From assembly GCF_050920415.1 (NCBI RefSeq), contig NZ_CP169309.1: 64,000 nt of DNA; one strand, 5' to 3'. Position numbers and translations under genes: made by a program. Every line of letters starts with the position of its first letter. The stretch's first letter is position 1. This stretch comes from Escherichia coli (GTDB lineage: Bacteria > Pseudomonadota > Gammaproteobacteria > Enterobacterales > Enterobacteriaceae). This document shows, piece by piece, positions 824 through 32,877 of the stretch. The notes beneath the pieces are model-generated. The model was not told where the DNA came from and ran no database searches. It saw only the letters and a program-made list of their open reading frames with translations.

Positions 824-825
824 GG

Positions 826-1108: not shown

Positions 1109-1114
1109 CCGTAT

Positions 1115-2830: not shown

Positions 2831-3025
2831 TTTCCACTCCTTGTGGTGGCGAAAAAATATCACAAACTAGCATAGCGCCTTGTATGACAATTCAGCGAGT
2901 GAATATTTTGAAAATTCAGACAATAAACTGAGCATTCTTTTTCTCTCTCCATCATGCTTATGGCAAACTACGGTTTTTGCACCATTTTCGCTGCCTCGTC
3001 GGGCAACAGAGGAAGAATAATCCAT

Positions 3026-10087: not shown

Positions 10088-10308
10088 CGTCTCACCCTTG
10101 CTCGCGAGGTCCCAGTTTAACTTTAGACGCAGTTTTGCGAACCAGGTAGTTTTGCCCGTTTTTTGTTCATCTATAGGGTGATTTTATTTTTGCCAGGCGA
10201 TTTTGAGTGATCGTACTCACGAATTCTCATTTTTCTGCAAGAGTTCAAAGAAAGTTAAAGGCAGGCAATGTATGTTACGCGTTTTAAAGGGAAGTGTGGT
10301 TTGCGGGT

Positions 10309-11994
10309 ATGTACGATTTTAATCTGGTGTTGCTGCTGCTTCAGCAGATGTGCGTTTTTTTAGTCATTGCGTGGTTAATGAGTAAAACGCCATTATTCAT
10401 ACCGTTAATGCAGGTCACGGTTCGTCTGCCGCATAAATTTCTCTGCTACATCGTCTTTTCCATCTTCTGCATCATGGGCACCTGGTTTGGGCTGCACATT
10501 GACGATTCTATTGCCAATACCCGTGCGATTGGTGCGGTAATGGGCGGCTTACTCGGCGGTCCGGTCGTCGGTGGGCTGGTTGGTCTGACCGGCGGGTTAC
10601 ATCGATATTCGATGGGGGGCATGACCGCGCTAAGTTGCATGATCTCGACCATCGTTGAAGGATTGCTCGGCGGCCTGGTACACAGCATCCTGATCCGTCG
10701 CGGGCGTACTGATAAAGTCTTTAATCCCATTACCGCGGGTGCCGTCACGTTCGTCGCTGAAATGGTGCAAATGCTGATCATCCTGGCGATCGCCCGACCT
10801 TATGAAGATGCGGTGCGTCTGGTGAGTAATATTGCTGCGCCAATGATGGTCACCAATACCGTCGGCGCGGCGCTGTTTATGCGTATATTGCTCGATAAAC
10901 GCGCGATGTTTGAAAAATACACTTCGGCTTTTTCTGCTACTGCGCTGAAAGTGGCTGCCTCGACGGAAGGCATTTTGCGCCAGGGGTTTAACGAAGTGAA
11001 CAGCATGAAAGTGGCACAGGTGCTGTATCAGGAGCTGGATATTGGTGCAGTCGCGATTACCGATCGAGAGAAATTGCTGGCTTTTACCGGAATTGGTGAC
11101 GACCACCATTTACCCGGCAAACCGATTTCTTCGACTTACACCTTAAAAGCGATTGAAACCGGTGAAGTGGTCTACGCCGATGGCAACGAAGTGCCTTACC
11201 GTTGCTCGTTGCATCCGCAATGCAAACTGGGTTCGACGCTGGTGATTCCGTTGCGTGGTGAAAATCAGCGGGTGATGGGCACCATCAAATTGTATGAAGC
11301 CAAAAACCGTTTGTTCAGTTCAATCAATCGCACGCTGGGCGAGGGGATTGCGCAACTGCTTTCGGCGCAGATCCTCGCCGGGCAATATGAGCGGCAAAAA
11401 GCGATGCTCACCCAGTCAGAGATCAAACTGCTTCACGCCCAGGTGAACCCCCATTTTTTGTTTAATGCGCTTAACACCATTAAAGCGGTGATCCGCCGCG
11501 ACAGCGAACAGGCCAGCCAGCTGGTGCAGTATCTTTCCACTTTTTTCCGTAAAAACTTAAAGCGGCCTTCGGAGTTTGTTACTCTCGCCGACGAAATTGA
11601 ACATGTGAATGCTTATCTGCAAATTGAAAAGGCGCGCTTCCAGTCGCGGTTGCAGGTCAACATTGCTATTCCGCAAGAATTATCCCAGCAGCAATTGCCC
11701 GCGTTTACCCTGCAACCGATAGTGGAAAACGCTATTAAACATGGGACATCACAACTGCTCGATACAGGGCGAGTGGAAATCAGCGCCCGACGTGAGGGGC
11801 AACATTTGATGCTGGAGATCGAAGACAATGCCGGTTTGTATCAACCGGTAACCAATGCCAGTGGGCTGGGGATGAATCTGGTGGATAAGCGTTTACGTGA
11901 ACGGTTTGGCGATGACTATGGGATAAGCGTCGCCTGTGAGCCTGATAGTTACACCCGAATAACGTTACGACTACCATGGAGGGACGAGGCATGA
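10309..11994 (+). CDS. btsS: sensor histidine kinase (LytS type, 5TM-GAF-HK)
   Basis: ORF 10294..11994; start at ATG 10309 ([13 protein letters not shown]...), 561 aa; stop overlaps btsR start (ATGA). Confidence 0.9.
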
Positions 11995-12710
11995 TTAAAG
12001 TCTTAATTGTCGATGATGAGCCGTTAGCACGGGAGAACCTGCGCGTATTTTTGCAGGAGCAGAGCGATATTGAAATCGTTGGTGAGTGTTCAAACGCCGT
12101 AGAAGGGATCGGCGCGGTGCATAAACTGCGCCCGGACGTGCTGTTTCTCGATATCCAGATGCCGCGTATTAGCGGTCTGGAAATGGTGGGGATGCTCGAC
12201 CCGGAACATCGTCCGTATATCGTTTTTCTCACCGCGTTTGACGAATACGCCATTAAAGCCTTTGAAGAACATGCATTTGATTATCTCCTGAAGCCAATTG
12301 ATGAAGCGCGGCTGGAGAAAACGCTGGCGCGTTTGCGTCAGGAGCGCAGCAAGCAGGATGTTTCGCTGTTACCGGAAAATCAACAGGCGCTGAAATTTAT
12401 CCCTTGTACGGGGCATAGTCGGATTTATTTGCTGCAAATGAGAGATGTAGCATTTGTCAGCAGTCGGATGAGCGGTGTCTACGTTACCAGCCACGAAGGG
12501 AAAGAAGGTTTTACCGAACTGACATTACGTACCCTGGAGAGTCGTACACCACTACTACGCTGCCATCGTCAGTATCTGGTTAACCTCGCGCATTTACAGG
12601 AGATTCGTCTGGAAGATAACGGCCAGGCCGAGTTGATTTTACGTAATGGCTTAACTGTTCCGGTCAGCCGCCGCTATCTGAAAAGTTTAAAAGAGGCGAT
12701 TGGCCTGTAA
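11991..12710 (+). CDS. btsR: LytTR-family response regulator
   Basis: ORF 11976..12710; start at ATG 11991 ([16 protein letters not shown]...), 239 aa, receiver domain plus LytTR. Confidence 0.9.
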
Positions 12711-12756
12711 AAGACTGCTAAAATGGTTTTTTGCCTCATCAACACCTGAAGGCCTC

Positions 12757-13227
12757 ATGCTAAGTAACGATATTCTGCGCAGCGTGCGCTACATTTTGAA
12801 AGCCAATAATAACGACCTGGTGCGCATTCTGGCGCTGGGTAATGTCGAAGCCACTGCGGAACAGATCGCCGTCTGGCTACGCAAAGAAGACGAAGAAGGG
12901 TTTCAGCGTTGTCCGGACATTGTTCTGTCTTCATTCCTGAATGGCCTGATTTATGAAAAACGTGGCAAGGATGAGTCAGCTCCGGCACTGGAGCCGGAAC
13001 GTCGCATTAATAACAACATCGTGCTGAAAAAATTACGTATCGCGTTTTCGCTGAAAACTGATGATATTCTGGCGATCCTTACTGAACAGCAGTTCCGCGT
13101 TTCGATGCCGGAAATTACGGCGATGATGCGTGCACCGGATCATAAAAACTTTCGTGAATGCGGCGATCAATTCATGCGTTATTTTCTGCGTGGGCTGGCA
13201 GCGCGCCAGCATGTGAAGAAAAGCTAA
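12757..13227 (+). CDS. yehS: DUF1456-family protein
   Basis: ORF 12700..13227; start at ATG 12757 (MLSNDILRSVRYIL...), 156 aa. Confidence 0.8.
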   Translation: MLSNDILRSVRYILKANNNDLVRILALGNVEATAEQIAVWLRKEDEEGFQRCPDIVLSSFLNGLIYEKRGKDESAPALEPERRINNNIVLKKLRIAFSLKTDDILAILTEQQFRVSMPEITAMMRAPDHKNFRECGDQFMRYFLRGLAARQHVKKS

Positions 13228-13269: not shown

Positions 13270-13731
13270 TTATTTCACTTCTTTAAAACCAGCGGCTTTC
13301 ATCACCAGTTCCATTTGCGCCATAGTGATACCTTTTTTGGCATCTTCAGCAGAAACGTTGATACCTGAAATACCCTGCAGGGCTTTAAAATCAACTTTTT
13401 CCATATCGATAGTCACGTTTTCCTGAGCATAGGTATCGGTAAAGGTTAATTTTTCTTCAACGCCAGGGATGTTTTTATATTTGGCACTTAACGGCTCAAG
13501 TGTCTTGGCAGCATCTTCTTTGGTGGTTGCACCAATGGAGGCAAATTGAATTTTGGTTTCAGAAGATTGCTTAAGAACCTTGTCACCTTTGTAGACATAG
13601 GTAATAGCAATTTCAGTACCGTTCAGATTAGCGCTAAATTTCTTCGATTCTTCTTTGTCACCGCAGCCAGCAAGAGAGAAAACCAGAACAGATGCAACAA
13701 CAAGGGAAAACAGCTTATTGAAAGCCTTCAT
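13270..13731 (-). CDS. yehR: lipoprotein (DUF1307)
   Basis: ORF 13270..13743; start at ATG 13731 (MKAFNKLFSLVVASVLVFSLAGC, lipobox LAGC), 153 aa. Confidence 0.85.
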   Translation of the reverse strand: MKAFNKLFSLVVASVLVFSLAGCGDKEESKKFSANLNGTEIAITYVYKGDKVLKQSSETKIQFASIGATTKEDAAKTLEPLSAKYKNIPGVEEKLTFTDTYAQENVTIDMEKVDFKALQGISGINVSAEDAKKGITMAQMELVMKAAGFKEVK

Positions 13732-13862
13732 GTAAAACTCCATTTTATTTAATCAAGGAACTGGTGACCACACCAGGGGCCATATAGGATATGCCTAATA
13801 CCTTGGCGTGAGCAGTCCGGAACTGGAGTAGAACTCTTTGTAAAAAGCACTATTTGTCCTTG

Positions 13863-15854
13863 TTACTCAAGCAAGGTTAATAATTGTTCGCAAAGCAAAA
13901 CGCAGTTATTCATTGCTTCTCCCCGTGCCTCGCCTTCTGTATTACGAAATTGTCCCAACACATGTGCCAGCCGATAAAAACCCATCGCGGTGAGTTCATT
14001 GACCAGCAACTCTGACTGACTAATGGCACTCTGTTCCTGATAGCGCCAGCCATTATGGAGCAGTTGAATAAGCAACGCCTGACAGCGCATCAGTAACTGA
14101 TGAGTGGTAGACGGTACAGGCAGAACGCTGGCAGAAGGTAGCGGTGCCACAGGCGCAGTTTCTGCGTCCAGTGCCCAGGCGCGGGTTTTTGTCATCATCA
14201 CCCGTGGTTCCAGTGTCAATTGCCCCTCAGCAAAATTGATAAACCCAGAAACCAGACTAACGGGATCTTCTGTTTGTTGTAACAGAGCTGCCATGCGTTC
14301 AACAGCAAAGGGCGCACTGGCTGAAGCTGGCAGTGATAACGTCAGCACATTATCTTCACCTTCGCCACTGATTACCTGCGCATCCAGTGTCTGCCGACTG
14401 CTGTCCCAACCGAGTGAAATGCACTCTTCTACTGGCAGAATAAATAAGTTATCGACCTGGTTAAGCGGTCGTATGGCGGCTGGCGGACGTTGGCGTAAAT
14501 ATTCCCGCAAAGCCACAATGCCCGGCTGGCGCAGTGGTGCGCTCAACATTTGCCAGGCATCAGGCGACAGCGGAACAACACTGCTTAAGCGGTTGCGGGT
14601 AGCTAACAGCAACTCGCCATCGGCACTGCGTTTTGCTGCTTGTGAAACAATTTGCCCACCCGCCAGCGCGCCAGCCTGAAAACTAAACAGCCGCCGTTTT
14701 GCCGCTGGAGAGTTATCCTGTTCACTTCTCGGCCAACTGCGCGAAAGATGCAAAATACTGCCGGTGTCGGGATCGGTGAACCAGATGCGTAAACCATACC
14801 GCTCATTATCCTGCCAGCAACGCATACCTAGTGACACCAGCCGCAAATGATCAAGCTTTGCTTCGCCAGCAATGCCTGCGCCAACGACCGTGCGCCACGG
14901 TATGGGCGGTACTTCACCGACACTGTCACGTCGCGCTATCTCTTGTGCACTGTTCAAGCGACTGGTTAACGCCGCAAGCTGGCACAAGCATTTTCCGGCA
15001 TGATAGTGGCTGGCGCGGGCGTGGAAGGCATCAACGCTTGCCCGTAGCTGTCGTAGTGATTCACTTACCCAACGCCAGTTGCAGCGTTCCGCCGCTTGCT
15101 GCGCGCGGCTGAAAGCGGCCTCGTAGTGGATTGACGGTTGGCTGATCCCGCCCAGCCATAATGCCTGACTTAATTGCTGAACATATTGACGACATGCTTT
15201 ACCTTCGTCGCTGGAAAACGGATCGTCAGATGATGTGACGTGTTCACTGTGCATCTGCCAGATCAAATGAGTAAATTCCGCTTGTTGATTTTTGGCCTCG
15301 ACGAAGGCCTGCACAGCCAGTGCTACGTGTTCACACAGCGTTCCTTCAATACAATCACAACGGGCGAAACGAATGCTGCTGCGGGAATAAAAACGCACAT
15401 CGCTCATCGGTAAGCGGGCAGAGGGAATTTCGCCCGGTGTGCAGAACAACTCAATGGTGATGCCTTTAGCGACCAGCGCCTGCGCGCGTTTACGCGTGGT
15501 ATTGGGCAGGGTAGCCAGTTCTTCCTGCCAGATTGCCGGATCCCACTCTTCTTCTTTTTCCGTAGGCTGGGCGGTGGCACAAAGTCGTTGATAACTTAAC
15601 ACCAGCATCACGCGATGACGGCACATGCCGCTGGCCCCGCAGCTACATTGAGCCTCTTTCAGTGCCTGACTGTTCGCCAGCCGGGTACGGACACCGTCAC
15701 TGAAGGTGGCGATTAAAGCGCCGTTCTCATGGCAGATTTCCGGGACATTGCCATTTTCCAGTTCCTTAAGGCTGCGCTTCACAAAACCAGCATTGCTTAA
15801 CGCCGTCAGGGCCTGCGGTGTCAGTTCTAATAATTCCGGACGTAGTGAATTCAT
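13863..15854 (-). CDS. yehQ: SWIM zinc-finger protein, function unknown
   Basis: ORF 13863..15959; start chosen at ATG 15854, which overlaps the yehP stop (ATGA); two CxC...CxH SWIM-like motifs (CSCGASGMCRH and CDCIEGTLCEH); exact start uncertain. Confidence 0.75.
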   Translation of the reverse strand: MNSLRPELLELTPQALTALSNAGFVKRSLKELENGNVPEICHENGALIATFSDGVRTRLANSQALKEAQCSCGASGMCRHRVMLVLSYQRLCATAQPTEKEEEWDPAIWQEELATLPNTTRKRAQALVAKGITIELFCTPGEIPSARLPMSDVRFYSRSSIRFARCDCIEGTLCEHVALAVQAFVEAKNQQAEFTHLIWQMHSEHVTSSDDPFSSDEGKACRQYVQQLSQALWLGGISQPSIHYEAAFSRAQQAAERCNWRWVSESLRQLRASVDAFHARASHYHAGKCLCQLAALTSRLNSAQEIARRDSVGEVPPIPWRTVVGAGIAGEAKLDHLRLVSLGMRCWQDNERYGLRIWFTDPDTGSILHLSRSWPRSEQDNSPAAKRRLFSFQAGALAGGQIVSQAAKRSADGELLLATRNRLSSVVPLSPDAWQMLSAPLRQPGIVALREYLRQRPPAAIRPLNQVDNLFILPVEECISLGWDSSRQTLDAQVISGEGEDNVLTLSLPASASAPFAVERMAALLQQTEDPVSLVSGFINFAEGQLTLEPRVMMTKTRAWALDAETAPVAPLPSASVLPVPSTTHQLLMRCQALLIQLLHNGWRYQEQSAISQSELLVNELTAMGFYRLAHVLGQFRNTEGEARGEAMNNCVLLCEQLLTLLE

Positions 15855-16987
15855 GACTGAAGATTCTCCGCAAGCCAGGTAGCCAGTTCGCCTGGCGTCA
15901 TCGCGGCTATTTGTGCGCCGACATTTACCAGCGCCTGGGCTGTATCGCGGTCGTAGCAAGGTGTTGCGGTGCTATCGAGCGCTGCCAGTCCCAGCACTTT
16001 GATGCCGCTCTGGACACACTTTTTCACCTGATGCGTCAGCAAAGATGATGAACCCCCTTCATAAAAATCGCTCACGAGTATGATGACGCTTTTCGCTGGT
16101 TGTTCAATAAGTTGCCGACCATATTCCACGGCACTGGCGATATTGGTCCCGCCGCCCAATTGTACTTTCATTAATAACTCTACCGGATCGGCAACGTCGG
16201 CAGTGAGATCGACGACGTTAGTGTCAAAAGCGACCAGATGGGTACGAATGCCGGGTAACTGCCATAAACAGGCCGCCATCACCGCTGAGTGGATCACCGA
16301 GTCAACCATCGATCCGCTTTGATCAACCAGTAACACCAGCTGCCATTGTTCGCTATGGCGCTTAATGCGACTGTTAAAGCGGGGGGATTCGATATACAAC
16401 TTGCCGTGTTGCGGGTGCCAGTGTTGCAGGTTGGCGCGCAGAGTACTTTTGAAATCGAAATTACGCGCCAGTGGAATAAATGAGCGGCGACGGCGATCGC
16501 GGACACCAGAAAAAGCCTGACGAACTTCCTTTGCCAGTCGCGCCATAATTTCTTCAACAACCTGGCGCACTATCCGGCGGGCGGCAGCCAGCACTTCGGG
16601 ATTCATCAGATGTTTGGTGTGCAAAACGGCGCGTAACAGGCTTTCAGAGGGCTGCATACGTTCCAGCACGTCGAGATTTGTCACTACATCTTCAATGCCA
16701 TAGCGCAGTACAGCATCGCTTTCCAGCCGCTCAATCACCTGTTGCGGAAACAGCGTGTGAATACTGTTGATCCAATCAGGGGTGGTGAGATTTGAGCCAC
16801 CTAATCCACCGGAGCGTTCACCACGCTGGAGCCGTTCAGGATCGCGCCCGTACAGCCACTCCAGCGCGTGGTCCATCCGCCGGGCGTTGTCATCCAGCCC
16901 ACAAAGCGTCGTTTCTGCCGCTTCGCCAAGAATTAATCGCCAGCGTTGTAGCTCACGAGTGGTCAGAAGATCGTTCAGTTCAGACAT
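15851..16987 (-). CDS. yehP: von Willebrand factor A (VWA) domain protein
   Basis: ORF 15851..17215; start at ATG 16987 (MSELNDLLTTREL...), 378 aa; MIDAS-like DQSGS motif; start overlaps the yehM stop. Confidence 0.85.
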   Translation of the reverse strand: MSELNDLLTTRELQRWRLILGEAAETTLCGLDDNARRMDHALEWLYGRDPERLQRGERSGGLGGSNLTTPDWINSIHTLFPQQVIERLESDAVLRYGIEDVVTNLDVLERMQPSESLLRAVLHTKHLMNPEVLAAARRIVRQVVEEIMARLAKEVRQAFSGVRDRRRRSFIPLARNFDFKSTLRANLQHWHPQHGKLYIESPRFNSRIKRHSEQWQLVLLVDQSGSMVDSVIHSAVMAACLWQLPGIRTHLVAFDTNVVDLTADVADPVELLMKVQLGGGTNIASAVEYGRQLIEQPAKSVIILVSDFYEGGSSSLLTHQVKKCVQSGIKVLGLAALDSTATPCYDRDTAQALVNVGAQIAAMTPGELATWLAENLQS

Positions 16988-19259
16988 GGAAAACTCCCCA
17001 GTGTTGCAGTGATGCCAGTGCCTGCTGTTCGAGCTGTTGATGATGTGCAATGGCTTGCGGTGGGCAATGCAACGGCATTTGCAGCGCCGAAACGGGAAGC
17101 TGAGCGAGCTGGTAATGCTCAAGCACCTGATGCGCCAGCGTCCCGCGTTCTCGTGGCGGTAGCCAGGCCATCGCCGCGCGCAAATCGGGCAGGGCGTTAA
17201 TAAAATCGGCGTCACTCAGTTGATTCAAATGGCTGCTGAAACCGGCGATAAATGCAGGCTGACTGGCCAGTTGATGGCGGGCTAATGCCAGCAAACCGTG
17301 CAGCGCCTCGCCAGATTGTGCCGGGGATAATTGTGCCAGCATCGTCAGCGCCGCTTCGGCACTGGCGTTGGGATGTTCCAGACGCATCAGCGCGCCAAGG
17401 GCCGCACCGCGATCCAGCGCTGGGGCATGAATCGCCTGACTGCGACGTTCCAGTAAGGCTACCGCCGCAGAAAGCGAAACGCCGGGTAAATTAACGCCGC
17501 TATTTAGATCGCGCAGGATATGGCAAAGCGCCTGCCAGCTATGCAGGTGAGCGTGAAACTCCTTCTCATCCGGCCTGCCGTTGGATTCACATAGCCACAG
17601 TGTGCGATCGATAGCCGCGTATAACGTCGTCTGTAATATCTGCGCGCCTTGCATACCGCTGATTTCATCGAGCTGCCACAAGGCGTAAAGCACTTCCAGC
17701 GCCTGGCCCATTTCGGCAAACTGATTTTCCTGGGCGATTAATAATGTGAGTTGTTCCAGTAATTGCTGACTGAAGGACGCCAGACCCGCTAACGCTGCCT
17801 GGCTAAGACATGTGGTGATGCCGCTGATTCCACCCGCGTCCAGCATATCGGCTTCTAATTTATTGCGTGCGGCCTCCTGGAGGGTGGCACCAAAGCAGGC
17901 GGCTTCAATCAATGCCGCATGTTGGCTAAGTGGCTGGGTTAATGTCCAGCGTTCTTCACCGTTGCCCGCCAGCGTCAGTGTACTTCCGTGCTGGCGCACA
18001 ATGCCGGGAATCTCCAGTATTGCCAACCGATGTAGCACCTGACTTTGCGCCAGTCCATCGGGGGGAAAGCGATTTAAGGTAAGCTCCGCCGGAAGAGAGA
18101 TTCCGGTACGTTCCAGTTCGCAGGTGACATCTTTTGGCAGAGGTGGCTGTGGCGTCGAGGGGGCAAGTTTACCGAATCCGTCACCTGCTAATGTGTCTAT
18201 CAACGTTACCAGTATCGGATCGGTATCGGGATGAATAACGCCGCGATAGCTCCACGGCAACGGCGCGTTCAGGGCTTCTTTGATCAGCGAGCCTGCTATA
18301 GCATCCAGCCAGTCAGTGCGTAACGGTAGTGTATGACCGCGCAACTGTGCCAGTGCCATCGCATGCAGATGAGCGGCAGCCATATCCGCTGTTGAAGCAG
18401 GCAAGTGGTGCTGGCGCAAACGGGTAAGAACCGTTTTTAGTAGTTGTTCACCTGCCTGCTGCAAGCCCCACCGCCAGCACCAGTTTTGCCAGACCGGGGC
18501 AGGCATTCCTGAAAGGTATCCTGCCAGCACATCAAGGCGCTTTTCACTGTATGGCGTGAGATAGCAACCTGTAACGGCATCTGCCAGCGAAGGCAATTCT
18601 GGCTTGTTCATTTCTTGCAAACATTCGCGCCACATTTTTGCCAGTGCCGGAGCGTGCCAGCCACCACAGACGACTAACACGCCGCCATTGTTTTGCTGCA
18701 TCGCCCATGCAATCCAGTGGGCCATAAAGGCTTCGCGCTGACGATTGAGCGCATCGCCGGGGTAGTCGCCCCGCAGTTGGGCAAAATAGTGCGCCAGTGC
18801 ATAGGGTAATATAGTTTGCTGGCTTTCATCTTCGAACAGGTGATCCCACAGGGTGTCGCTGTTATCCATACGAGTGGCACGCAGCAACAAAGCCTGGCTT
18901 TCCTCTTGCGTACCGGGTGACTCGTCCTCTTCTTCACTCTGCGCCCAGCAAGGCAAATCAATAAAGTAAGTTTGTGCCTGAATATGACGTGCGGTTTGTA
19001 GCGCCTGCCACTCCGGCGAAAATTCAGCAAATGGCGTCCAGGCGCCACGTCCGGGGGCAGCACCGTCCTGATACTGGCAATAACTGTAAATCGCCACCGG
19101 AAGCTGGTGGGCTAAAAACAGTTCGTCTATCCGGTCATTAAAATCCGCCGGGCCTTCAATCAACACGTATCGCGGCCGCTGGTTTTCGATTAACGATTTC
19201 ACCAGTCGGGCGCAGGCCGGGCTATGATGCCGGATGCCGACAATTAACGGCTCGCTCAT
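16980..19259 (-). CDS. yehM: large uncharacterized protein (YehM family)
   Basis: ORF 16980..19400; start at ATG 19259 (MSEPLIVGIRHH...), 759 aa; 10 nt downstream of the yehL stop. Confidence 0.8.
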   Translation of the reverse strand: MSEPLIVGIRHHSPACARLVKSLIENQRPRYVLIEGPADFNDRIDELFLAHQLPVAIYSYCQYQDGAAPGRGAWTPFAEFSPEWQALQTARHIQAQTYFIDLPCWAQSEEEDESPGTQEESQALLLRATRMDNSDTLWDHLFEDESQQTILPYALAHYFAQLRGDYPGDALNRQREAFMAHWIAWAMQQNNGGVLVVCGGWHAPALAKMWRECLQEMNKPELPSLADAVTGCYLTPYSEKRLDVLAGYLSGMPAPVWQNWCWRWGLQQAGEQLLKTVLTRLRQHHLPASTADMAAAHLHAMALAQLRGHTLPLRTDWLDAIAGSLIKEALNAPLPWSYRGVIHPDTDPILVTLIDTLAGDGFGKLAPSTPQPPLPKDVTCELERTGISLPAELTLNRFPPDGLAQSQVLHRLAILEIPGIVRQHGSTLTLAGNGEERWTLTQPLSQHAALIEAACFGATLQEAARNKLEADMLDAGGISGITTCLSQAALAGLASFSQQLLEQLTLLIAQENQFAEMGQALEVLYALWQLDEISGMQGAQILQTTLYAAIDRTLWLCESNGRPDEKEFHAHLHSWQALCHILRDLNSGVNLPGVSLSAAVALLERRSQAIHAPALDRGAALGALMRLEHPNASAEAALTMLAQLSPAQSGEALHGLLALARHQLASQPAFIAGFSSHLNQLSDADFINALPDLRAAMAWLPPRERGTLAHQVLEHYQLAQLPVSALQMPLHCPPQAIAHHQQLEQQALASLQHWGVFHV

Positions 19260-19269
19260 GCATCTTTCC

Positions 19270-20358
19270 TCACGGCAGGCGGTGGCGAGCTTGATAATAA
19301 GCCTGCCAGTGAGCTTCTTTATGTGTAGCGACACGTTGTTCGAAGTAACGGCGCAGACGTGCGCGATCTTCTTCGTTATCTTTGACGATGGTTCCGGCAA
19401 TACAGTCCACCAGGTCGGCTGGCTCCCCCGCGCGATTCGCTAAAAACCAGGCGCGGACGCCCACAGCGTGGGCCACGTTCACGGCTTCAGCGGTGGACAT
19501 AATCGCTGTCAGTGTATCCATTGACGTTTTCTTTTCGCCGTTGGCACGCAGATCGCGGAAGGTGCGTACCAGTAACTCAAGTACCGCGTCAGGCACTTTA
19601 TGCGGAATACCGCTATGGGCCAACAAACGCGCCGAAGCACTGGCGACCAGTTCCAGCTCCTGAGCAAAATCCATAATCGGAAAGACAGTTTCAAAGTCGA
19701 ATCGGCGTTTTAGTGCCGCGCTCATTTCATTAACGCCGCGATCGCGGGTATTGGCGGTGGCAATAATATTAAAGCCTTCCCGCGCATAGAGCTGACTGGC
19801 TTCACCAGTGAGTTCCGGCACCGTCATAACCCTGTCAGAAAGCATACCTAACAGACAGTCTTGTACTTCCAGTGGTGTACGCGTTATCTCTTCAAAACGG
19901 ACAATTTTGCCGTCGCGCATTCCTTGGTAGAGCGGGGCAGGGACCAGCGCTTCCGTTGACGGACCATGATTAATAAGCAGGGCGTAGTTCCAGCCGTACT
20001 TGATTTGATCTTCGGTGGTAGATGCGCCGCCCTGGATAGTTAACCCAGCATCGCCGCTAATAGCGGTTGCCAGTAATTCAGACAGGAGAGATTTTGCGGT
20101 GCCAGGTTCCCCCACCAACATCAAACCGCGCCCGGTAGCAAGAGTGACTAACATGCGTTCGACAGCGGAGGGACTAATCACGACTTTACGGCTGATATTT
20201 TGCGCGCTATCGCCAAGAATAAAAGAACGGGCCGCAGGCAAACTTAACTGCCAACCGGGCGGGCAAGGTGCGTTATCATTTTGCTTTAATTTTGCCAGTT
20301 CATCGGCGTATAACACAGCGGCAGGCGGACGCTGCAGATGATTATTCTGCGGTGACAT
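19270..20358 (-). CDS. yehL: MoxR-like AAA+ ATPase
   Basis: 362 aa; Walker A GEPGTAKS; first gene of the yehLMPQ operon. Confidence 0.85.
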   Translation of the reverse strand: MSPQNNHLQRPPAAVLYADELAKLKQNDNAPCPPGWQLSLPAARSFILGDSAQNISRKVVISPSAVERMLVTLATGRGLMLVGEPGTAKSLLSELLATAISGDAGLTIQGGASTTEDQIKYGWNYALLINHGPSTEALVPAPLYQGMRDGKIVRFEEITRTPLEVQDCLLGMLSDRVMTVPELTGEASQLYAREGFNIIATANTRDRGVNEMSAALKRRFDFETVFPIMDFAQELELVASASARLLAHSGIPHKVPDAVLELLVRTFRDLRANGEKKTSMDTLTAIMSTAEAVNVAHAVGVRAWFLANRAGEPADLVDCIAGTIVKDNEEDRARLRRYFEQRVATHKEAHWQAYYQARHRLP

Positions 20359-20464
20359 ATATTCATCCCTGAAATGTATTAATCAAATAAACGATATTTT
20401 ACGCGCAATAAATGTTTGGCGCATTAGTTGTTTGAGCGGAAAATATCTGGAAAGCAATCACAGT

Positions 20465-20551
20465 AAATAAAAAAACCTGCTGGTGAGGCAGGTTCTTTTA
20501 TTTACTACTTTCAGGCCTAACACCACGGCCTGTGCAACATCGTGTTCCAAC
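20465..20551 (-). ncRNA. orzO: candidate OrzO-like antitoxin sRNA (type I TA)
   Basis: Minus-strand sigma70-like promoter (TTGCAA-N17-TATAAT, -10 at 20563..20558) and minus-strand intrinsic terminator (stem 20474..20494 followed by a U-run in the RNA); the transcript 5' region is complementary (19 of 20 nt) to the zorO 5' UTR at 20699..20718; ends are predicted, not mapped. Confidence 0.45.
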
Positions 20552-20557
20552 GAACGA

Positions 20558-20608
20558 ATTATAACCATCGGTGGACCCCGTTGCAATTAAGATAATGAGA
20601 TTTATAAT
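20558..20608. promoter_or_regulatory. divergent overlapping sigma70 promoters sharing one palindromic -35 hexamer
   Basis: Plus strand: TTGCAA (20581-20586) N16 TATAAT (20603-20608), predicted TSS near 20615 giving a ~175-nt leader to the zorO ATG; minus strand: the same TTGCAA read in reverse, N17, TATAAT (20563..20558). Confidence 0.5.
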
Positions 20609-20789
20609 CCTGACTGTTGGGACGTTGCGCCGGATCGAACCCATTTCAAGTCCTGGCTACCGGACGGGTGGTGCCGCAGGTAGTGCCCTGATCCGGAGTG
20701 CAACATCGTGGTCCAACATACGTAAACCAGTATCGACAGGCAGTGTAAGGGTAAGATGCTGGTGTTGCGCTCCTTAATAAGGAGAGCGG

Positions 20790-20879
20790 ATGGACACGCT
20801 GACACAAAAGTTAACCGTGCTCATTGCCGTACTGGAGTTATTAGTGGCTCTGTTACGGCTGATTGATTTGTTGAAGTAA
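20790..20879 (+). CDS. zorO: type I toxin, 29-aa hydrophobic peptide (ZorO-like)
   Basis: ATG 20790 preceded by GGAGAG SD; translation MDTLTQKLTVLIAVLELLVALLRLIDLLK; stop TAA 20877-20879; missed by the ORF track because shorter than 60 aa; matches my recollection of ZorO from E. coli O157:H7. Confidence 0.7.
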   Translation: MDTLTQKLTVLIAVLELLVALLRLIDLLK

Positions 20880-21138
20880 CGGGCAAATTGAAACGCATCT
20901 AAGGGGGAATACCGTCTCCCTCTTTAATAAAGCTATACTCGTCATAATTCAAGTTGCATGTGCTGCGACTGCGTGTTATTCGGCCCATCCATGGACCTCA
21001 CCCCTTACGGGGCCGCTGCAAGTAGCGTTCAAATCCGCTCCATGCGGATTTGTCGTTCACCCCAGTCACTTACTTTAGTAAGCTCCTGGGGATTCACTCG
21101 CTTATCGCCTTCCTGCAACTTGAATTATTTAGAGTATA

Positions 21139-21456
21139 TTATTCTATTTCTTGGTTGAATATATTCTGTAGTTCACGATTAAAAATAGCGATTACAGTTT
21201 CAGGTGATTCACCTCGTAATTTTCGCTCATCAATAAATTCATCTCTTATATAAATCAACGCATCATTTATTAGCGGGTCGGCATCATCTCTATCACGTTG
21301 ATGAAATGTTGGACGTAGCCGGAATCGTTCCTGTCGATAGACGGAACCTGTAAATAATTCAGAGCATTTATGGATCTCAAGTCTGAAGGAAAACGGATCT
21401 TCAGGTACAGGGACTTCATAATCATAAGTAGCGACCAGCTCTTTTTGCACGATCAT
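21139..21456 (-). CDS. yehK: small uncharacterized protein, 105 aa
   Basis: ORF 21139..21456, 60 nt downstream of yehI on the same strand; size and position match K-12 yehK. Confidence 0.7.
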   Translation of the reverse strand: MIVQKELVATYDYEVPVPEDPFSFRLEIHKCSELFTGSVYRQERFRLRPTFHQRDRDDADPLINDALIYIRDEFIDERKLRGESPETVIAIFNRELQNIFNQEIE

Positions 21457-21516: not shown

Positions 21517-24500
21517 TTAATGGAAAATGACGTCAGGTGCGCTTAACGCTTCACTCAAATCAAACGTATCGAGTTCGGCAAAAGTGACAGATTTATTGTC
21601 ACGGTACACTCGAAGAGAACGGAAGCTCATTAGCGCTTTGCTATCAGCACTGTAGTGGTTAAAACCGGGTGAAAACTTAAGGACCAGCCGATACTCGCCC
21701 AGGTCATAGACACATGCGTCCTCAAAACCTGACTCCCAGCCTTTGTATCGCATTCCCATAAGTTGCCCAACGGTTGCGGATTTACCTTCCCAGCGAGTCA
21801 GGCTGTTACTGGCTGACTCGTCAGGTGTGAGCAGCACTGTGCGCCGCATCAACTGGCGAAAAGGCTGCATAATTTCGTAATCGGCAAAAACCTGTGCAAA
21901 TTCACTGCGCATTTCTGCTGTCATTTCTAACGGGTGGGCAATGCCAATCAGAGCATCCGCAGGCAGGTCAATTGGCTCATCTTGTGCGTTGCAGAACTCC
22001 CCCTCAGCGGCCACACGAAAGGCGTTGAGTAAACGACGCGGTTCATTTGCCGGATAAACCGCCCATATTAATCGCTGAGTAACCAGGCGAGTAAAGGGAT
22101 GATTAACAAACAGAGAATGAAAATCTGCCAGCGACCAGCGTCGGGTGGTGCGTAGGGCAGTTTCAAGACGCGGGAGCAGGTTTTTGCTCACCTGAGTGGC
22201 ATCTTTTTTTAGCCCTTTTAGTCGGGCCAGTGCCTCGGGCGCTTTCAGTTGATCGTCATCGGCGCGCAACCGGGGAACACTTTTCTGGCGAACGTTTTGC
22301 TGATCAAAGATAACCGGGTTGAGGTTTTCATCGAAGCGAACGGTAAACTGCCGGGGACCAAAATCAAATATCAACGCCTGCGGATCATCCAGGCCCAGTG
22401 TTGGGACTAATCTGTCCGCTAACTCTTCCTGGCTTAGTCCACGATTTTCTGCGACCACCTGAAGAAATTCCGCCGCGTTATCACGTAAGGGACGGGATTT
22501 CGCCCGTTGCGATATATGATGCAGCTGTATCAGTGCCATATCATTATTCATCTGAGTAAGTATATTCAGACCACTGACAGCACGGGCAGATTTGCCCTCT
22601 TGAGGCCAGGCAAGGATCTGTGTCGTCAGATTCCGAGCCGTGCTTTCGTCACCAAAGAGACTTAACGCCAAAAAAGCCCAGTTGTCTTTTGCGGGGGCGC
22701 CAGCCTGTTGCCAGGCGGTGAAGAGATCCCAGGCAAAAGCGGCCAGCGTTTGTGGCTGGCAGAACGTTTTCAGTTGTTCCAGCCCGCAATAAAAACGTCC
22801 GCCCTGGGTAAAGCGCAGCATTTCGCCAATAATTTCCAGAGCGTCATCAGTAACAGGTTGATTATTCGTGATAAGTCTCGGCCTGGACCACATTGCCGGA
22901 TGCCAGAAATCAGGGGCTTTGGGAATGCGTGCCGGGTAAATCTCTATTGGACTCTGTTTAAGTAATTGCTCCAGGGCAGGCCATACATCTGTACGCTGCC
23001 AACGATTGGCTACAGTTTGTAGCAATTCGCCATGTCCTTGTTCATACAGTAAACGCAGAGCATTGAGTGCCGCTTCGCTGTTATCGCCAGACCTGGCAAA
23101 GATTAATGGGATCAGCGCCGTAGCCGTATGCTCCGGCCATTGTAAAATCCACTGGCGAGCCAGATTACGCTGGCCCGCAAAACGATGCCAGACGCGGGCA
23201 ACGGGCAGCGCCAGTTCTGTTGCGCCAAAATGAATCAGCAGCGGAAATATCTCTTTGGGATGTCGGGCAAAGGCGGTGATTAATCCGGGCAAAGCATCGG
23301 TACCCAGCACACTTAACAGATATTCCACCCCGGTGTAATGAAAATCAGCCGCGACAATTTGTTGCCAGCACGATACTGCCATTTCGCGCGGCATTTGCGC
23401 GATAAGGTACAGATTCCACACTCCCCAACGCTTTTCATCAGTGTAATTAAATTTGCGTTGGAAAGTTCGCCACCCCTCCATCAACGCAACGCTATCTTGT
23501 GCCAGTAATGCGCTGGCGGCCTCTTCCCGGTAGTGTTTATTTTCAGTCTGTTTTGCCTGATAATTGAGCAATCTTCCTAATGAAGTATGTGTCTCTAGTT
23601 GATCGGTATCCAGAGCATCCAACTGTCCTGTGAGAATAAACTCATTAAACTTCCACCTGTGATCTTCAAAACCTAATTCCCGCAAGAAGGTATCGGTTCC
23701 TCTGCTAGCGAGACGTTCGTCAAAAGGCATGGCGCTAAAATGGCTGATTGTAGTTTGTTGTTCCTGCGTCCAGTGTTCCTGGGACGACCTGTACGCTTGC
23801 GGTACAAGCGTAAGTTCAGGTAGCGAAAAGTGAGTTATGGAAGTCTTTTTTCTGCCACGCCACGGTGGCGAAACGAGGATTTCAGGCAGACTGCTGTTAT
23901 CGGTGCTATCAATAACCGGTTTTGGCGAAGCCGATAAATAACTATTCACCACTGCCCGGGCTTGAGTACTTAACCACGGCATCACCTCTTCTGCCAGTTG
24001 TGGCTGCGATGCCATCAGCGTTTGTAACAGCGTATGCCAGTATTCATCACGTGCTTTTTGCTGTGCAGGCAGCTTTTTGTCTTCGATGATAGGATAACCA
24101 GGGCGCGCAGGGGGTTCTTTTAACGCCAGTAGTTCTGCCAGTGCGGCGAGCGTCGCATGGGGAAAGTTTTTACTGTATTTAGCCACACGTTGCAGGCTGG
24201 GTTTGTTTTTATCGGCAACTAACAGCAAGATGCGAATAACTTGCGGATGGTTAATTTGTACCAGCAGGCTACCGCAATCTTCTTTATGGGCATACATCGC
24301 GAGGCGTGGAACGGCTGCAATTCCCTGTTCGCGCAAAAGGGCGGCGCAGGCCGCGTAGCCGAAGTGGTTTTCATGCGACATGTAGCTGGCTTCGCGATCG
24401 CTAAATATATCCTGGCTCCAGTAGCGTTCGAGTTTTCTCACCGCTCTGGGGTCATTAGCAACAACTTTTAACCACTCCTTAGAATGAAAATGAGTCCGCG

Positions 24501-25167
24501 GGCATTCAAGGCCTACCAACTCATTGGCGATTTCTGGTTTCTCCGGGAGGATGAGTGCAATAAAAGGACGGCGAACTTTGGGTATTCCTGGCAGTGCGGC
24601 AATGAGTTTGTCGGCGCAACGCTGCCAGCAGCTTTCCTCTGCCAGAGAGAGATGCTTACGCAGTCGGAGATCGAATTCGTTATAGGTTTCTGAGCGATAA
24701 CCATAGCCATAACCATCGTCCTCGTTCTGATACTGCAATGTTACTACCAGAGGATCACTCTCATAACACCGTACAATAAACTGGCGTGCAATCACCACTT
24801 CAGTCGCATATTCCAGTCCCTCTTGTTGGACGATTTCATCGAGCAACTGTTGGCTATCATTTTGCGCGATACAGGCTAGCGCCGCCATTGTCCGGGCCGG
24901 AATTGAGGGGTTGTGCTCGCCTATCAAGTTGATGGCTTGCGTAATGGCCGACTGCCACTCCAGTGAAAAATTTTCATAACGCCAGACGATGTTTTTTTTC
25001 TTCTCAGCAATGTGTAGCAATTTATCACCCAGTGTCTGGATGAGGCTTTCAGTGATAACAGGCACCGGTTCGCCCGGCCAATTGCGATGGCTGAGTGGTG
25101 TTTTGCCTTTTTTATATTTCAGTTCCAGTTGGGCGTTATCCGCTAGCCACGGTAATTCCTTGTCCAT
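21517..25167 (-). CDS. yehI: large MolR/YehI-family protein (DUF4132-type), without the N-terminal WGR domain
   Basis: 1216-aa ORF; central and C-terminal regions share blocks with the two upstream paralogs (e.g. DFGPRQFTVxFDExL, HPLxxxLTxRLIW); starts 9 nt after the upstream paralog stop. Confidence 0.85.
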   Translation of the reverse strand: MDKELPWLADNAQLELKYKKGKTPLSHRNWPGEPVPVITESLIQTLGDKLLHIAEKKKNIVWRYENFSLEWQSAITQAINLIGEHNPSIPARTMAALACIAQNDSQQLLDEIVQQEGLEYATEVVIARQFIVRCYESDPLVVTLQYQNEDDGYGYGYRSETYNEFDLRLRKHLSLAEESCWQRCADKLIAALPGIPKVRRPFIALILPEKPEIANELVGLECPRTHFHSKEWLKVVANDPRAVRKLERYWSQDIFSDREASYMSHENHFGYAACAALLREQGIAAVPRLAMYAHKEDCGSLLVQINHPQVIRILLLVADKNKPSLQRVAKYSKNFPHATLAALAELLALKEPPARPGYPIIEDKKLPAQQKARDEYWHTLLQTLMASQPQLAEEVMPWLSTQARAVVNSYLSASPKPVIDSTDNSSLPEILVSPPWRGRKKTSITHFSLPELTLVPQAYRSSQEHWTQEQQTTISHFSAMPFDERLASRGTDTFLRELGFEDHRWKFNEFILTGQLDALDTDQLETHTSLGRLLNYQAKQTENKHYREEAASALLAQDSVALMEGWRTFQRKFNYTDEKRWGVWNLYLIAQMPREMAVSCWQQIVAADFHYTGVEYLLSVLGTDALPGLITAFARHPKEIFPLLIHFGATELALPVARVWHRFAGQRNLARQWILQWPEHTATALIPLIFARSGDNSEAALNALRLLYEQGHGELLQTVANRWQRTDVWPALEQLLKQSPIEIYPARIPKAPDFWHPAMWSRPRLITNNQPVTDDALEIIGEMLRFTQGGRFYCGLEQLKTFCQPQTLAAFAWDLFTAWQQAGAPAKDNWAFLALSLFGDESTARNLTTQILAWPQEGKSARAVSGLNILTQMNNDMALIQLHHISQRAKSRPLRDNAAEFLQVVAENRGLSQEELADRLVPTLGLDDPQALIFDFGPRQFTVRFDENLNPVIFDQQNVRQKSVPRLRADDDQLKAPEALARLKGLKKDATQVSKNLLPRLETALRTTRRWSLADFHSLFVNHPFTRLVTQRLIWAVYPANEPRRLLNAFRVAAEGEFCNAQDEPIDLPADALIGIAHPLEMTAEMRSEFAQVFADYEIMQPFRQLMRRTVLLTPDESASNSLTRWEGKSATVGQLMGMRYKGWESGFEDACVYDLGEYRLVLKFSPGFNHYSADSKALMSFRSLRVYRDNKSVTFAELDTFDLSEALSAPDVIFH

Positions 25168-25176
25168 GCTCTTTCC

Positions 25177-28100
25177 TTATTCAAACAGGGCTTCAATATC
25201 GTTAATCAACTCGCTGGCGGTGATGTCATCGAGTGCGGAGAACTGCGCTTCCTGTGTTGAATGACTCCCCCAGCCATAGCTTTCTGCTTTGCCTTCCCAT
25301 AGCCACAGCTTGCTTAAGAGTTGCTCGGCACTGAGTTCGGCTGGCGACATACCAACTGCAAATCCTTCATCGATTTCCATGATTAATGACCAGCGGCCCA
25401 GAGGTTTGATCATCCAGCCGATCCAGCCACCGTCCTGCGGTTCACCACGCATCCAGCCTTTATTCGCCAGCCCCATTACCCGACCGCTCGGGCATTTTCT
25501 GCCTGCCCAGCGGGTCAATTCGCTGGCATTGCGCTCGGTTTCTGTCAGGGCATAACTGTTGCGGTCGAGCTGGCGGAACGGCGGTAACAGCTCGTAGTCG
25601 GCAAAAAGCTGACCAAAGGCGGCGGCATCCGTCGGTGATATTTCCAGAACGTGAGGAATACCAATAGAGATATCGCCTTCCGGCAGGGTGAAAAGATCAT
25701 CGTCAGCGGTGCTGTAGCTGTTATCTTCCGCCACACGGAAGCACGCCAGTAACTGGTTGTCTGCGCTATAAATGCCCCAAATCAGACGGCGGGTTAAGTG
25801 GCAGACCAGCGGATGCTCAACCAGAAAGAGCTGAAAGTTTTCCGGCGACCAGCGGCGGCGCAGGCACATGGCGGATTCCAGCCTTGCCACCTGCTGGGCG
25901 GCAACGGTACGCGCATCTTTTTTCAGCAGTTTGTAGCGGTTAACTGCATCGTTCGCTTGGGTTTCATCATCGCTTTTGTTCGGTTTAGGCAAGTCTTTCA
26001 GGCGGCTGCCGGAAACATCGCGCACAAACGGTTTTAAGGTTTCATCAAAGCTGACGGTGAACTGCCGTGGGCCAAAATCCAGCAGCAGCGAACCGTTATC
26101 ATCCAGACCGAGATCCGGTGCTAACCGGTCTTCAAGCTCCGCCACCGTGAGTTCGCGGCTCTCGGCAATGTCGGCAATTTTTTCTTTTGCCCGCTCCTGT
26201 AATGCTTTGAATTTCAGTTTCTGGGCGATGCCGTTAAGCTGCATCAGGGCGATATCACTACCGATAGCAGCGAGGATATCCAGCCCGACGGTGGCGCGTT
26301 TATGCTGGGATTCACCAGGCCAGGCGCGGATTAATGGCGTCAGTTTGCGGGCGGTGTCATCGTTGCCAAGAACACCTAATGCAGTGAACGCCCAGCTCTC
26401 TTTCGACGGCGCGCCAGCGGTCTCCCAGGCGGTAAACAGATCCCAGGCAAACTCAGCCAGTGAGTCGGCAGTACAGGCGTCTTTCACCTGTAATAACCCC
26501 GGATACAGCGTATCTTCCTGAGGGAAGCGAAGCATTTCACCGAGGTGGAAGAGGGCGCTATCTGGCAGTGATTGGGCGTTTGCTTTTAATACCGGGCGCG
26601 TCCAGAGCGATGGCTGATAAAAGGCCGGAAGAGTGGGGATTTTTGTCGGGTGATTATCTAAGGGATCGAGCGCTAGCAGAGCGTTCACCGCGTCTGTTAC
26701 TTCCGGCTGGTTATAACGCCGGGCGATTTCTTGCAATAATGGCTGATGACCGTTTTCTGTAAGCATACGCAAGGCAGCGCGGGCGTTGTCCTGCGCTTCA
26801 CCGGCTTTGCCGAGCGCCGCGGGCAGCAGGCCGGTAATGGCGTGTTCCGGGTATTTCAGCAGCCAGCTACGGGCGTCTTGTCGTAGGGTTTTGAGTTTGT
26901 TGAAGGCGCGGGCGACGGCAGGAGCCAGCTCACTCGCTGCGAAGTAATTCGTTATGGGCAAGGCTTCCTGTGGATAGCGTGCAAGTGAGTTTACTAACCC
27001 AGGTAATCCTTTGAGTCCAAAATGTAACATGGCGTATTCGGTATCGGTATGCGGAGATACAGTAAGGGCATTCCATGCTCTTATTGCTTTCTCCAGCGGC
27101 AATGTTGTCAAAATCCCCAAATGCCAATAATGCCCGGTAGGTGAATGAAACACCTTAAATTCACTTATTAAGGTTGCATAATCTTCATTTAGCCATGCCT
27201 CAACTACCGCTTCGGGAGCTTTAATATATGTACCAGCGATCCGTCGTTGAAAACCCATCCTTGCCAACAGATTGGCAGTACTTTCTTCATGACTAACCGT
27301 GATGTGTTTTGAATACCAGATATATTTCGCCAAAAGTTGATTACTGATTTCTTCTGTCAGATAACTGATTGGCTCAATGCCTAATGGTGCTAAATCAAGC
27401 ACCGGAATCGACGATTTTTTCTTTTTCGAAAGCCATGGTGGGGAGACTACTATGGCCGGCAGTAGATCGGTGCTGGCATGGTTTGAGGGCTGTGTCAGTT
27501 GTTGCTGGCATGATTTCAGCACTGCAGCTGCGGGTGTCGAAAGCCAGGGAATGACCTGTTCTGCCAGTGCTGGTTGCGAGATAAGCATCGTCATTAGCAT
27601 AATGCGCCAACTATTCTCTTCTTTTTGCACTAGAAGTTCCGCCAGTGCTGCCAGTGCTGCGTGTGGGAACGCAGCGCAGGCTTTCGTCATTCGATCGTGA
27701 CAGCGTTTAGTATGCCCGGCTACACGTATAAGCAGTGTTAATGCGAACGGATGATTGATATGACGCAACACATCGGCGCAGTAGTCACTTGCGGCATAGG
27801 GAGCAAATCGGGGCAGGGCTGCAACACCTTGCTCCTGTAATACGGTGGCTGACCATATCGCACCACAATAGTAATCATCAAAAATGGCATATGGCTCGTG
27901 ATATTTTTCTAATGAGGCAAGAATGTGCTCATCAGTCGCCACTATTTTTAGCCACTCAAGCGAGGGTAATTTTTTTTTCCCCAGTAGACGCTGGGCAATT
28001 TCATGTGCAATTTCTGGTTTTTCGGGTAATAACATAGCAATTAATGGTTGCCGCCATTCTGGAATATGTGGAATTGCGGCAATAAGTTTTTGTGCACATT

Positions 28101-28971: not shown

Positions 28972-28983
28972 TGCTAAATCCTT

Positions 28984-32781: not shown

Positions 32782-32877
32782 CCGCGTTCCCTGTATTTAT
32801 ATCCAGTTATAAGCGGATGCTAGCAGTTAATGAAAAAAATTAAGAGCGTTGAACAAACAAGAAAACAACTTTAGGAA

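Follow-up and report, generated by a model that had tools for sequence, protein, structure and literature searches.

We analysed a 64,000-nucleotide (nt) stretch of Escherichia coli DNA (RefSeq assembly GCF_050920415.1, contig NZ_CP169309.1), referred to here as the window, which is 100% identical to strain MFDS1022581 and carries the yehLMPQ genes. These are four long open reading frames (ORFs) arranged head to tail on the minus strand: yehL (19270-20358) encodes a 362-residue MoxR-family AAA+ ATPase of the YehL subfamily, yehM (16980-19259) a 759-residue DUF5682 protein, yehP (15851-16987) a 378-residue CoxE-type VWA protein with a complete metal-ion-dependent adhesion site (MIDAS), and yehQ (13863-15854) a 663-residue SWIM protein. 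RefSeq names their products ATP-binding protein, DUF5682 family protein, VWA domain-containing protein and SWIM zinc finger family protein, respectively. Upstream of yehLMPQ, and also on the minus strand, this strain has three DUF4132 (MolR-type) genes, all intact: MolR paralog 1 (28984-32781, 1265 residues), the first gene of the co-directional array, MolR paralog 2 (25177-28971, 1264 residues) and a yehI-type gene (21517-25167, 1216 residues). In K-12, molR is a pseudogene. We found that yehLMPQ is the downstream half of a conserved (MolR/YehI-type DUF4132)n-YehL-YehM-YehP-YehQ cluster, the five families of which are co-inherited.

The distribution of the cluster was surveyed by a conserved YehM peptide scan of a 100,044-species set, with one genome per species, in which at least 562 species, among the 600 stretches listed, encode YehM relatives. 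The scan gave eighty loci, spread over Gamma- and Betaproteobacteria, Myxococcota and Actinobacteria, and all ORFs of 82 loci were searched with the E. coli proteins by iterative hidden Markov models. All five families occur in 73 of the 82 loci, across four phyla. With I denoting a DUF4132 gene and the other letters the yeh genes, the order is I-L-M-P-Q in 32 loci, II-L-M-P-Q in 10 and III-L-M-P-Q in 18, and the number of DUF4132 genes per locus ranges from one to five. Burkholderia has the order L-M-P-Q-I, an alphaproteobacterial plasmid of Sinorhizobium has L-M-I-P-Q with overlapping junctions, and the DUF4132 gene is divergent in Labilithrix and in a Polyangiaceae bacterium. Proteus mirabilis retains I-L-M-P-Q even though its YehM is only 28% identical. 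The Serratia fonticola YehM homologue lies in a cassette of WGR-DUF4132, AAA_5, DUF5682, VWA_CoxE and SWIM genes between unrelated genes, an arrangement also present in Iodobacter and Luteimonas, and the flanking genes are unrelated in each genus examined. Nine loci lack the full set; five of these are truncated at contig ends and four are real exceptions. Two L-M-P-Q loci have no nearby DUF4132 gene.

The first-pass annotation of this DNA, a reading of the sequence without database searches, had called yehLMPQ a four-gene operon and named gene-neighbourhood conservation as a check; co-inheritance of the four genes held across phyla. It had also placed a MolR-paralog array directly upstream. 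The three DUF4132 genes are indeed there, and they are more than neighbours, since they represent the fifth family present in 73 of the 82 loci. Because DUF4132 genes travel with L-M-P-Q across loci, we count the MolR-type genes at 21517-32781 as part of the system.

The survey also returned some local variants. Two myxobacterial metagenome-assembled genomes (L040 and L055) carry L-M-P alone, with YehQ and a nearby DUF4132 gene not detected; these may be either a minimal core of three genes or a variant with other partners. In Salinispora pacifica (L080), a second, partial L-M pair (2-3966) lies upstream of a complete I-L-M-P-Q, which suggests a local duplication. The Iodobacter fluviatilis cluster (L004; CP025783, 1085-20700) is flanked by transposases and adjoined by HsdM, HsdS and DUF1016/YhcG, and its YehQ gene is split into two ORFs.

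Within the window, the coordinates and overlapping junctions given at first pass were all recovered on the minus strand. The yehM stop and yehP start overlap by 8 nt (16980-16987), with the yehP ATG at 16987-16985, 5 nt upstream of the yehM TGA at 16982-16980, and yehP and yehQ have an ATGA in common at 15854-15851. yehL and yehM are separated by a 10-nt gap, without overlap, that contains a Shine-Dalgarno-like GGAAAG sequence. Similar spacing recurs among the homologous loci: M and P overlap in 69 of 77 (by 4 nt in 54 of these), P and Q in 65 of 78 (by 4 nt in 62), L and M lie within 20 nt of each other in 71 of 82, and I and L within 100 nt in 54 of 68. Translational coupling of L-M-P-Q is a family-wide property and not a matter of chance.

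YehL matches Pfam AAA_5 (E = 2.6e-34) and reaches only 0.0021 against Pfam bpMoxR; the solved sequences nearest to it are the AAA modules of Midasin (E = 2.9e-10). The YehL family has been described as one of seven MoxR subfamilies (PMC3893208). Its Walker A motif, GEPGTAKS, on which the earlier MoxR-type assignment had been based, is found at residues 83-90 (nt 20089-20112) and, together with an RFEEI Walker B-like motif, a TAN (sensor) motif and an RRF (arginine) motif, is invariant in 81 homologues. YehP matches Pfam VWA_CoxE (E = 2.2e-71), in keeping with its reading as a VWA protein. The MIDAS sequence DQSGS seen at first pass occupies residues 222-226 (D222-x-S224-x-S226, nt 16310-16324) and is accompanied by GGGTN and SD elements; D222, S224, S226, GGGTN and SD are invariant in 80 homologues. 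yehL and yehP occur together in 79 of the 82 loci, the other three being truncated at contig ends. Among distant homologues we observed four natural DUF5682-VWA_CoxE fusions (P0170, P0224, P0260 and P0267), so YehM and YehP can be one polypeptide, and one DUF5682-YehQ-like fusion. An NCBIfam search of the cluster proteins gave only sub-threshold matches to GvpN, MadB, McrB and cobaltochelatase, with YehL weakly matching GvpN and YehP weakly matching a cobaltochelatase subunit.

YehM, listed at first pass as a large unannotated protein, is indeed large at 759 residues, but it is not featureless. It matches Pfam DUF5682 (E = 1.3e-97) and, at E <= 10, no other Pfam family, with TraB_PrgY_gumN, Erythro_esteras and Cofac_haem_bdg all unmatched. 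Searches of the PDB with single sequences and family profiles of YehM, YehP and YehQ likewise gave no meaningful match. The predicted model of YehM, built from an alignment of 61 homologues, has a predicted local distance difference test (pLDDT) score of 92.8 and a predicted template-modelling (pTM) score of 0.90. In the model, residues ~1-250 (nt 18510-19259, minus strand) form a putative TIKI/TraB-like hydrolase-fold domain, an alpha/beta structure with a parallel beta-sheet core as in TraB, Bcr135/136, ChaN, HopBA1 and PMT. It is followed by a middle alpha/beta region and a C-terminal HEAT-like helical solenoid; this remainder matches AAA-lid-like and HEAT-like structures (TAF6, symplekin and PP2A-A), which fits a scaffold.

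The N-terminal domain of YehM carries a compact set of conserved residues. G8-x-x-H11 follows beta-strand 1, E35 lies at the end of beta-strand 2, R175-E176-x-x-M179 falls within a helix, and G199-G-x-H202 follows a beta-strand; the GxxH, Glu, Arg-Glu and GGxH elements are invariant or nearly so among the 61 homologues. The RRSP structure paper defined a TIKI superfamily with a catalytic His/Glu set and a conserved basic residue, and the proteins that match the YehM N-terminal fold are the set assembled there (PMC6254334). The order of the YehM motifs (GxxH, Glu, Arg, GxxH) is that of the TIKI, TraB, PrgY, GumN, erythromycin-esterase and ChaN proteins, the comparison being one of order along the sequence. 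The YehM N-terminus thus has, as modelled, the TIKI/TraB/erythromycin-esterase fold, visible by fold and motif only. YehM differs from the rest of the superfamily in that the domain is cytoplasmic, does not match Pfam TraB, is fused to a helical scaffold of ~500 residues and is tied to an AAA+/VWA pair. To our knowledge, no other TIKI superfamily member combines such a scaffold with an AAA+/VWA arrangement.

If YehM were inactive, its TIKI fold would be a binding module like that of ChaN or PMT, and the cluster would be a non-catalytic assembly chaperone that folds, assembles or disassembles MolR/YehI-YehQ oligomers without cleavage. Some TIKI-fold proteins are inactive, many vWA-attached peptidase domains in related systems are also inactive (PMC7159879), and MoxR proteins are generally called chaperone-like. 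However, the His/Glu/Arg/His set of YehM is kept across four phyla between sequences that are only 28-45% identical, an invariance that is hard to explain without catalysis or a conserved ligand site, and we regard the non-catalytic chaperone as quite improbable. Judged from the alignments, the ATPase, MIDAS and TIKI-type residues of the cluster are all under strong constraint.

YehQ had been described as a double-SWIM protein. Both CxC...CxH motifs are present in E. coli, at residues 70-80 and 166-176, and the model (pLDDT 92.4) places SWIM1 at residues ~39-95 (nt 15570-15740) and SWIM2 at residues ~133-190 (nt 15285-15458), both encoded on the minus strand. The first motif (C70, C72, C78, H80) is invariant in 52 of 52 homologues, whereas the zinc ligands of the second are intact in only 27 of the 52, so the double-SWIM description suits the E. 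coli protein and not the family. Matches to Pfam SWIM (PF04434) are marginal in E. coli YehQ (0.0036 and 0.24); 32 of the 52 homologues match at E <= 0.1 and just 3 at E <= 0.001. SWIM motifs are also only part of the protein. In the model, a helical region separates SWIM2 from two five-stranded beta modules, apparently tandem OB folds (residues ~331-561, nt 14172-14864, minus strand), and a four-helix bundle forms the C-terminus. The best Foldseek matches of the OB region are the p202 HIN1 domain (6.6e-4) and RPA70 DBD-A/B (1.2e-3), with further matches to LEF-3, Teb1, MNDA HIN, AIM2 HIN and POT1. YehQ therefore appears to carry OB folds, apparently in tandem, that resemble those of RPA, SSB and HIN-200 proteins.

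In the window, DUF4132 ends all three MolR-type proteins and WGR starts two of them. MolR paralog 2 matches Pfam WGR at residues 7-69 (E = 1.8e-15) and DUF4132 at residues 988-1173 (E = 8.2e-51); MolR paralog 1, which also combines WGR with DUF4132 and is annotated as DUF4132, is 43% identical to it over the full length, with near-identical WGR N-termini. The yehI-type protein (RefSeq DUF4132 domain-containing protein) is without WGR and is 32-37% identical to the two MolR paralogs. Across the loci, 52 of 76 have WGR on at least one DUF4132 gene. Searched against the PDB, the DUF4132 family profile matches WGR structures only, namely 2ra8 (3.7e-23) and PARP3 (0.0026), and by profile-profile comparison the DUF4132 proteins are unrelated to YehQ and YehM. 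The predicted folds of the YehQ centre and the MolR N-terminus match RPA70 DBD-A/B, Teb1, the HIN-200 domains of p202 and AIM2, and the PARP WGR domain. Relative to these tandem-OB and WGR binders, sequence similarity exists in WGR only, and the domains are here parts of large proteins with several domains, encoded in an ATPase operon. Actinobacteria such as Lentzea, Glycomyces and Actinomadura also have DUF4132 paralogs in tandem, in arrays of 2 to at least 5.

The cluster shares its central pair with RavA-ViaA, CbbQ-CbbO, NorQ-NorD, CoxD-CoxE and Midasin/Rea1. Both sides have an AAA_5-type MoxR ATPase and a VWA/MIDAS partner, which here belongs to the CoxE family and is encoded two genes downstream in a coupled operon. 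What is unique here is the set of partners, a DUF5682 TIKI-fold protein, a SWIM-OB protein and DUF4132 proteins; the annotated neighbourhoods inspected here contain no respiratory, Rubisco, nitric oxide reductase or carbon monoxide (CO) dehydrogenase client genes. We rate the cluster as a MoxR-VWA system with a new client set.

The known pairs provide the model for a classical maturation or insertase function, in which the large MolR/YehI proteins would be assembled, or supplied with a metal or cofactor, by YehL and YehP, maybe in connection with molybdenum. MolR/YehI would then correspond to the large subunit, as CobN or BchH does with CobS/T or BchI/D, and CO dehydrogenase with CoxD/E. All MoxR pairs with a characterised function mature a partner complex, the match of YehP to VWA_CoxE is strong, and the weak similarities of YehL to GvpN and of YehP to a cobaltochelatase subunit point the same way. 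A partner of about 1200-1400 residues is similar in size to chelatase large subunits. In addition, molR was named after a molybdate-utilisation phenotype, as a citing paper relates it (Lee et al. 1990). Against this, the neighbourhoods inspected show no recurrent genes for molybdoenzymes, cofactors or CO dehydrogenase, and neither a CO dehydrogenase nor another metalloenzyme client operon of the CoxD-CoxE linkage type was found in the annotated neighbourhoods. A study in Deinococcus saw no co-regulation with molybdenum genes. The WGR, SWIM and OB domains indicate nucleic acids and not metals, and a maturation function leaves the conserved hydrolase-type active site of YehM unexplained. We consider it distinctly unlikely.

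A second family of MoxR-vWA systems, the ternary conflict systems of Kaur et al. 2020 (PMC7159879), offers a parallel in layout, since these also combine a MoxR ATPase, a vWA protein and a constant third protein with a peptidase-type domain, and both kinds of system are common in Actinobacteria and Myxococcota. Following the logic of those systems, the cluster could be an anti-phage or anti-plasmid device in which WGR, SWIM and OB domains sense invading nucleic acid and the MoxR-VWA pair releases YehM as an abortive-infection effector. The shared layout favours this idea, as does the variation in DUF4132 paralog copy number, from 1 to at least 5. The Iodobacter fluviatilis copy sits on a 77-kb plasmid (CP025783) by transposases and a type I restriction-modification system. 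Silencing by H-NS, described below for K-12, is typical of acquired genes. The region also differs from its surroundings in sequence identity: for yehLMPQ (13700-20700), identity is 90-95% to 5375 of the 5398 E. coli records, whereas for the flanking btsSR-yehS (10294-13227) and metG (32922-34964) it is 95-99% to nearly all records. In this lineage, yehLMPQ is more diverged than its neighbours.

Other observations argue against a conflict system. YehL, YehM, YehP, YehQ, YehI and YehK had no match in PADLOC-DB 2.0.0 at E <= 0.01. Of 5426 complete E. coli genomes, 5202 contain the 7-kb yehLMPQ region at >=80% coverage, which makes it near-core in the species, flanking synteny having been viewed in one record. 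Plasmid copies are rare (38 of 72,556 records, several of which are chromosomes or megaplasmids), and phages nearly lack the system, with a single record in a phage database that is distant and unannotated. Most genes on either side of the cluster belong to ordinary metabolism. Across phyla, the 82 loci keep a uniform architecture, and no swappable or variable effector domains, such as the effector-associated domains (EADs) of the Kaur et al. systems, were seen. In place of VMAP, iSTAND, a beta-propeller or FtsH, the third component here is DUF5682; this cluster is not described by Kaur et al., and YehL, YehP and SWIM are not listed among their families (PMC7159879). Matches to PHROGs were rejected as evidence of phage carriage: YehM, YehP, YehQ, YehI and YehK are near-identical over their full length to families of 'unknown function', and those PHROGs are probably E. 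coli chromosomal DNA mis-called as prophage. We therefore judge a conflict function to be unlikely.

The first-pass annotation had labelled the operon a candidate conflict or stress module. The conflict half of that label is so far unsupported by the searches above, from PADLOC to the plasmid and phage records, while the stress half gains some support from regulation. A LexA (SOS) box-like site, AACTGGATATAAATACAGGG, lies at 32789-32808 on the minus strand, upstream of the first MolR start codon and separated from it by 7 nt. Of its 20 positions, 15 agree with the LexA consensus, and no other site in the 64-kb window is as good. molR is among the LexA-regulated E. coli genes with a known SOS box (PMC6590174). 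Klebsiella grimontii has a similar box at the same position, and Intestinirhabdus a related one further upstream. Proteins of these families respond to DNA damage in Deinococcus radiodurans, where mitomycin C, acting through IrrE/DdrO, induces the DUF4132 protein DRA0166 and the WGR protein DR2173 (PMC8533742). GAAC-N4-GTTC sites in Lentzea were considered as Cheo-type boxes and rejected, as they fall at the same position inside paralogous coding sequences and reflect a protein motif.

Tentatively, then, we favour a reading in which the five-family cluster encodes an ATP-gated hydrolase complex that acts on protein at DNA and is SOS-linked in the E. coli group; we regard it as plausible rather than probable. 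The evidence comprises the five-family conservation, the M/P and P/Q overlaps, the fusions, the invariant active sites, the OB and WGR domains, the LexA box, the induction in Deinococcus and the lack of transmembrane segments in any of the cluster's proteins. The complex would be soluble and cytoplasmic. YehL, to judge from its intact and invariant ATPase motifs, would form a MoxR-type AAA+ ring that hydrolyses ATP. By analogy with Midasin, CbbQ-CbbO and CoxD-CoxE, YehP would be its VWA co-factor, gripping an acidic residue of a partner through the MIDAS. YehP may be permanently attached to, or anchored on, the YehM scaffold, because the two occur as natural fusions and show a nearly universal 4-nt start/stop overlap. 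YehM would be an active hydrolase. YehQ, with its SWIM and RPA/HIN-like OB domains, and the MolR paralogs, with PARP-type WGR and DUF4132, would serve as targeting or sensing subunits that, going by their folds, most likely bind DNA. Such a complex would most likely serve to cleave or remodel, in an ATP-gated manner, a protein at or on DNA. In E. coli it would be part of the SOS response, because molR, the first gene of the array, has a LexA box.

Several points weigh against the ATP-gated hydrolase. The Foldseek E-values of the YehQ OB region are marginal (about 1e-3), the region is acidic in E. coli (isoelectric point 5.6), and proteins and sugars are further ligands of OB folds. Not all TIKI-fold proteins are enzymes, ChaN and PMT being examples of those that are not (PMC6254334). 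An E. coli-type scan of all loci found good LexA boxes before the first DUF4132 gene in Escherichia, Klebsiella and Intestinirhabdus only. yehK, an ERIC repeat, a toxin-antitoxin locus and the OrzO terminator lie between the MolR array and yehLMPQ; because these elements separate the two, we leave SOS control of yehLMPQ itself as an inference. The scan found no LexA box upstream of yehL, and no good promoter was detected within 100 nt before it. In K-12, yehL and yehM are reported to be silenced by H-NS and to rise only in hns/stpA mutants (PMC3686432).

Precedent for the favoured mechanism comes from jumbo phages, in which the vWA protein of a MoxR-vWA pair carries an N-terminal metallopeptidase (Iyer et al. 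2021, PMC7824862). The DUF5682-VWA fusions likewise join a peptidase-type domain to the vWA co-chaperone; here, however, the peptidase fold is a different one and the setting is cellular, and the phage pair lacks SWIM, OB, WGR and DUF4132 partners. We speculate further, as an unlikely reading, that the cluster is a DNA-triggered, AAA+-gated protease, in which PARP-like WGR and RPA/HIN-like OB sensors recognise damaged or foreign DNA and the MoxR-VWA pair feeds a DNA-bound protein to YehM or unlocks it. Such a protease, if real, would constitute an SOS-inducible repair pathway for DNA-protein crosslinks or stalled complexes, or an AIM2-like DNA-sensing immune module. We know of neither kind of system built on a MoxR-VWA-TIKI core.

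Literature searches on yehL, yehM, yehP, yehQ, DUF5682, DUF4132 and MoxR with SWIM found no functional study, in agreement with the earlier statement that no function is established for the four genes. Previous work covers the genes themselves, the name of the YehL subfamily and the Pfam families. Neither the five-family unit with the MolR proteins in it nor the link of the long-listed SOS gene molR to a MoxR-VWA machine occurs in the database annotation and literature searched, and the TIKI-fold assignment of DUF5682 and the OB folds in YehQ are absent from Pfam, NCBIfam and the searched literature. E. coli has only two MoxR ATPases; YehL, one of them, heads a MoxR subfamily, yet it is without a known client, and molR has been LexA-listed for over two decades without an explained role. 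A five-part unit with a probable hydrolase and predicted DNA-binding modules turns these unnamed 'y-genes' into a concrete hypothesis, which, if true, would give the MoxR-VWA family a new client type and the TIKI superfamily a new enzyme-bearing branch.

The interval between the MolR array and yehL contains further features. A type I toxin-antitoxin locus had been reported next to the operon and was identified as zorO/OrzO, between yehK and yehL. The OrzO RNA (20469-20544, minus strand; Rfam OrzO-P RF02083, 98.9 bits) has its own promoter (20586-20558) and terminator (20507-20461), and zorO, a 29-residue ORF (MDTLTQKLTVLIAVLELLVALLRLIDLLK; 20790-20879), lies on the plus strand, opposite to OrzO. 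Between zorO and yehK, at ~20990-21110, we recognised by eye an intergenic repeat of the ERIC (enterobacterial repetitive intergenic consensus)/IRU (intergenic repeat unit) type, GAGTGAATCCCCAGGAGCTTACTAAAGTAAGTGACTGGGGTGAACG... Lastly, yehK (21139-21456, minus strand) encodes an acidic protein of 105 residues. Its homologues occur in Escherichia only among the 82 loci, which marks yehK as a lineage-specific insertion between the DUF4132 array and yehL.

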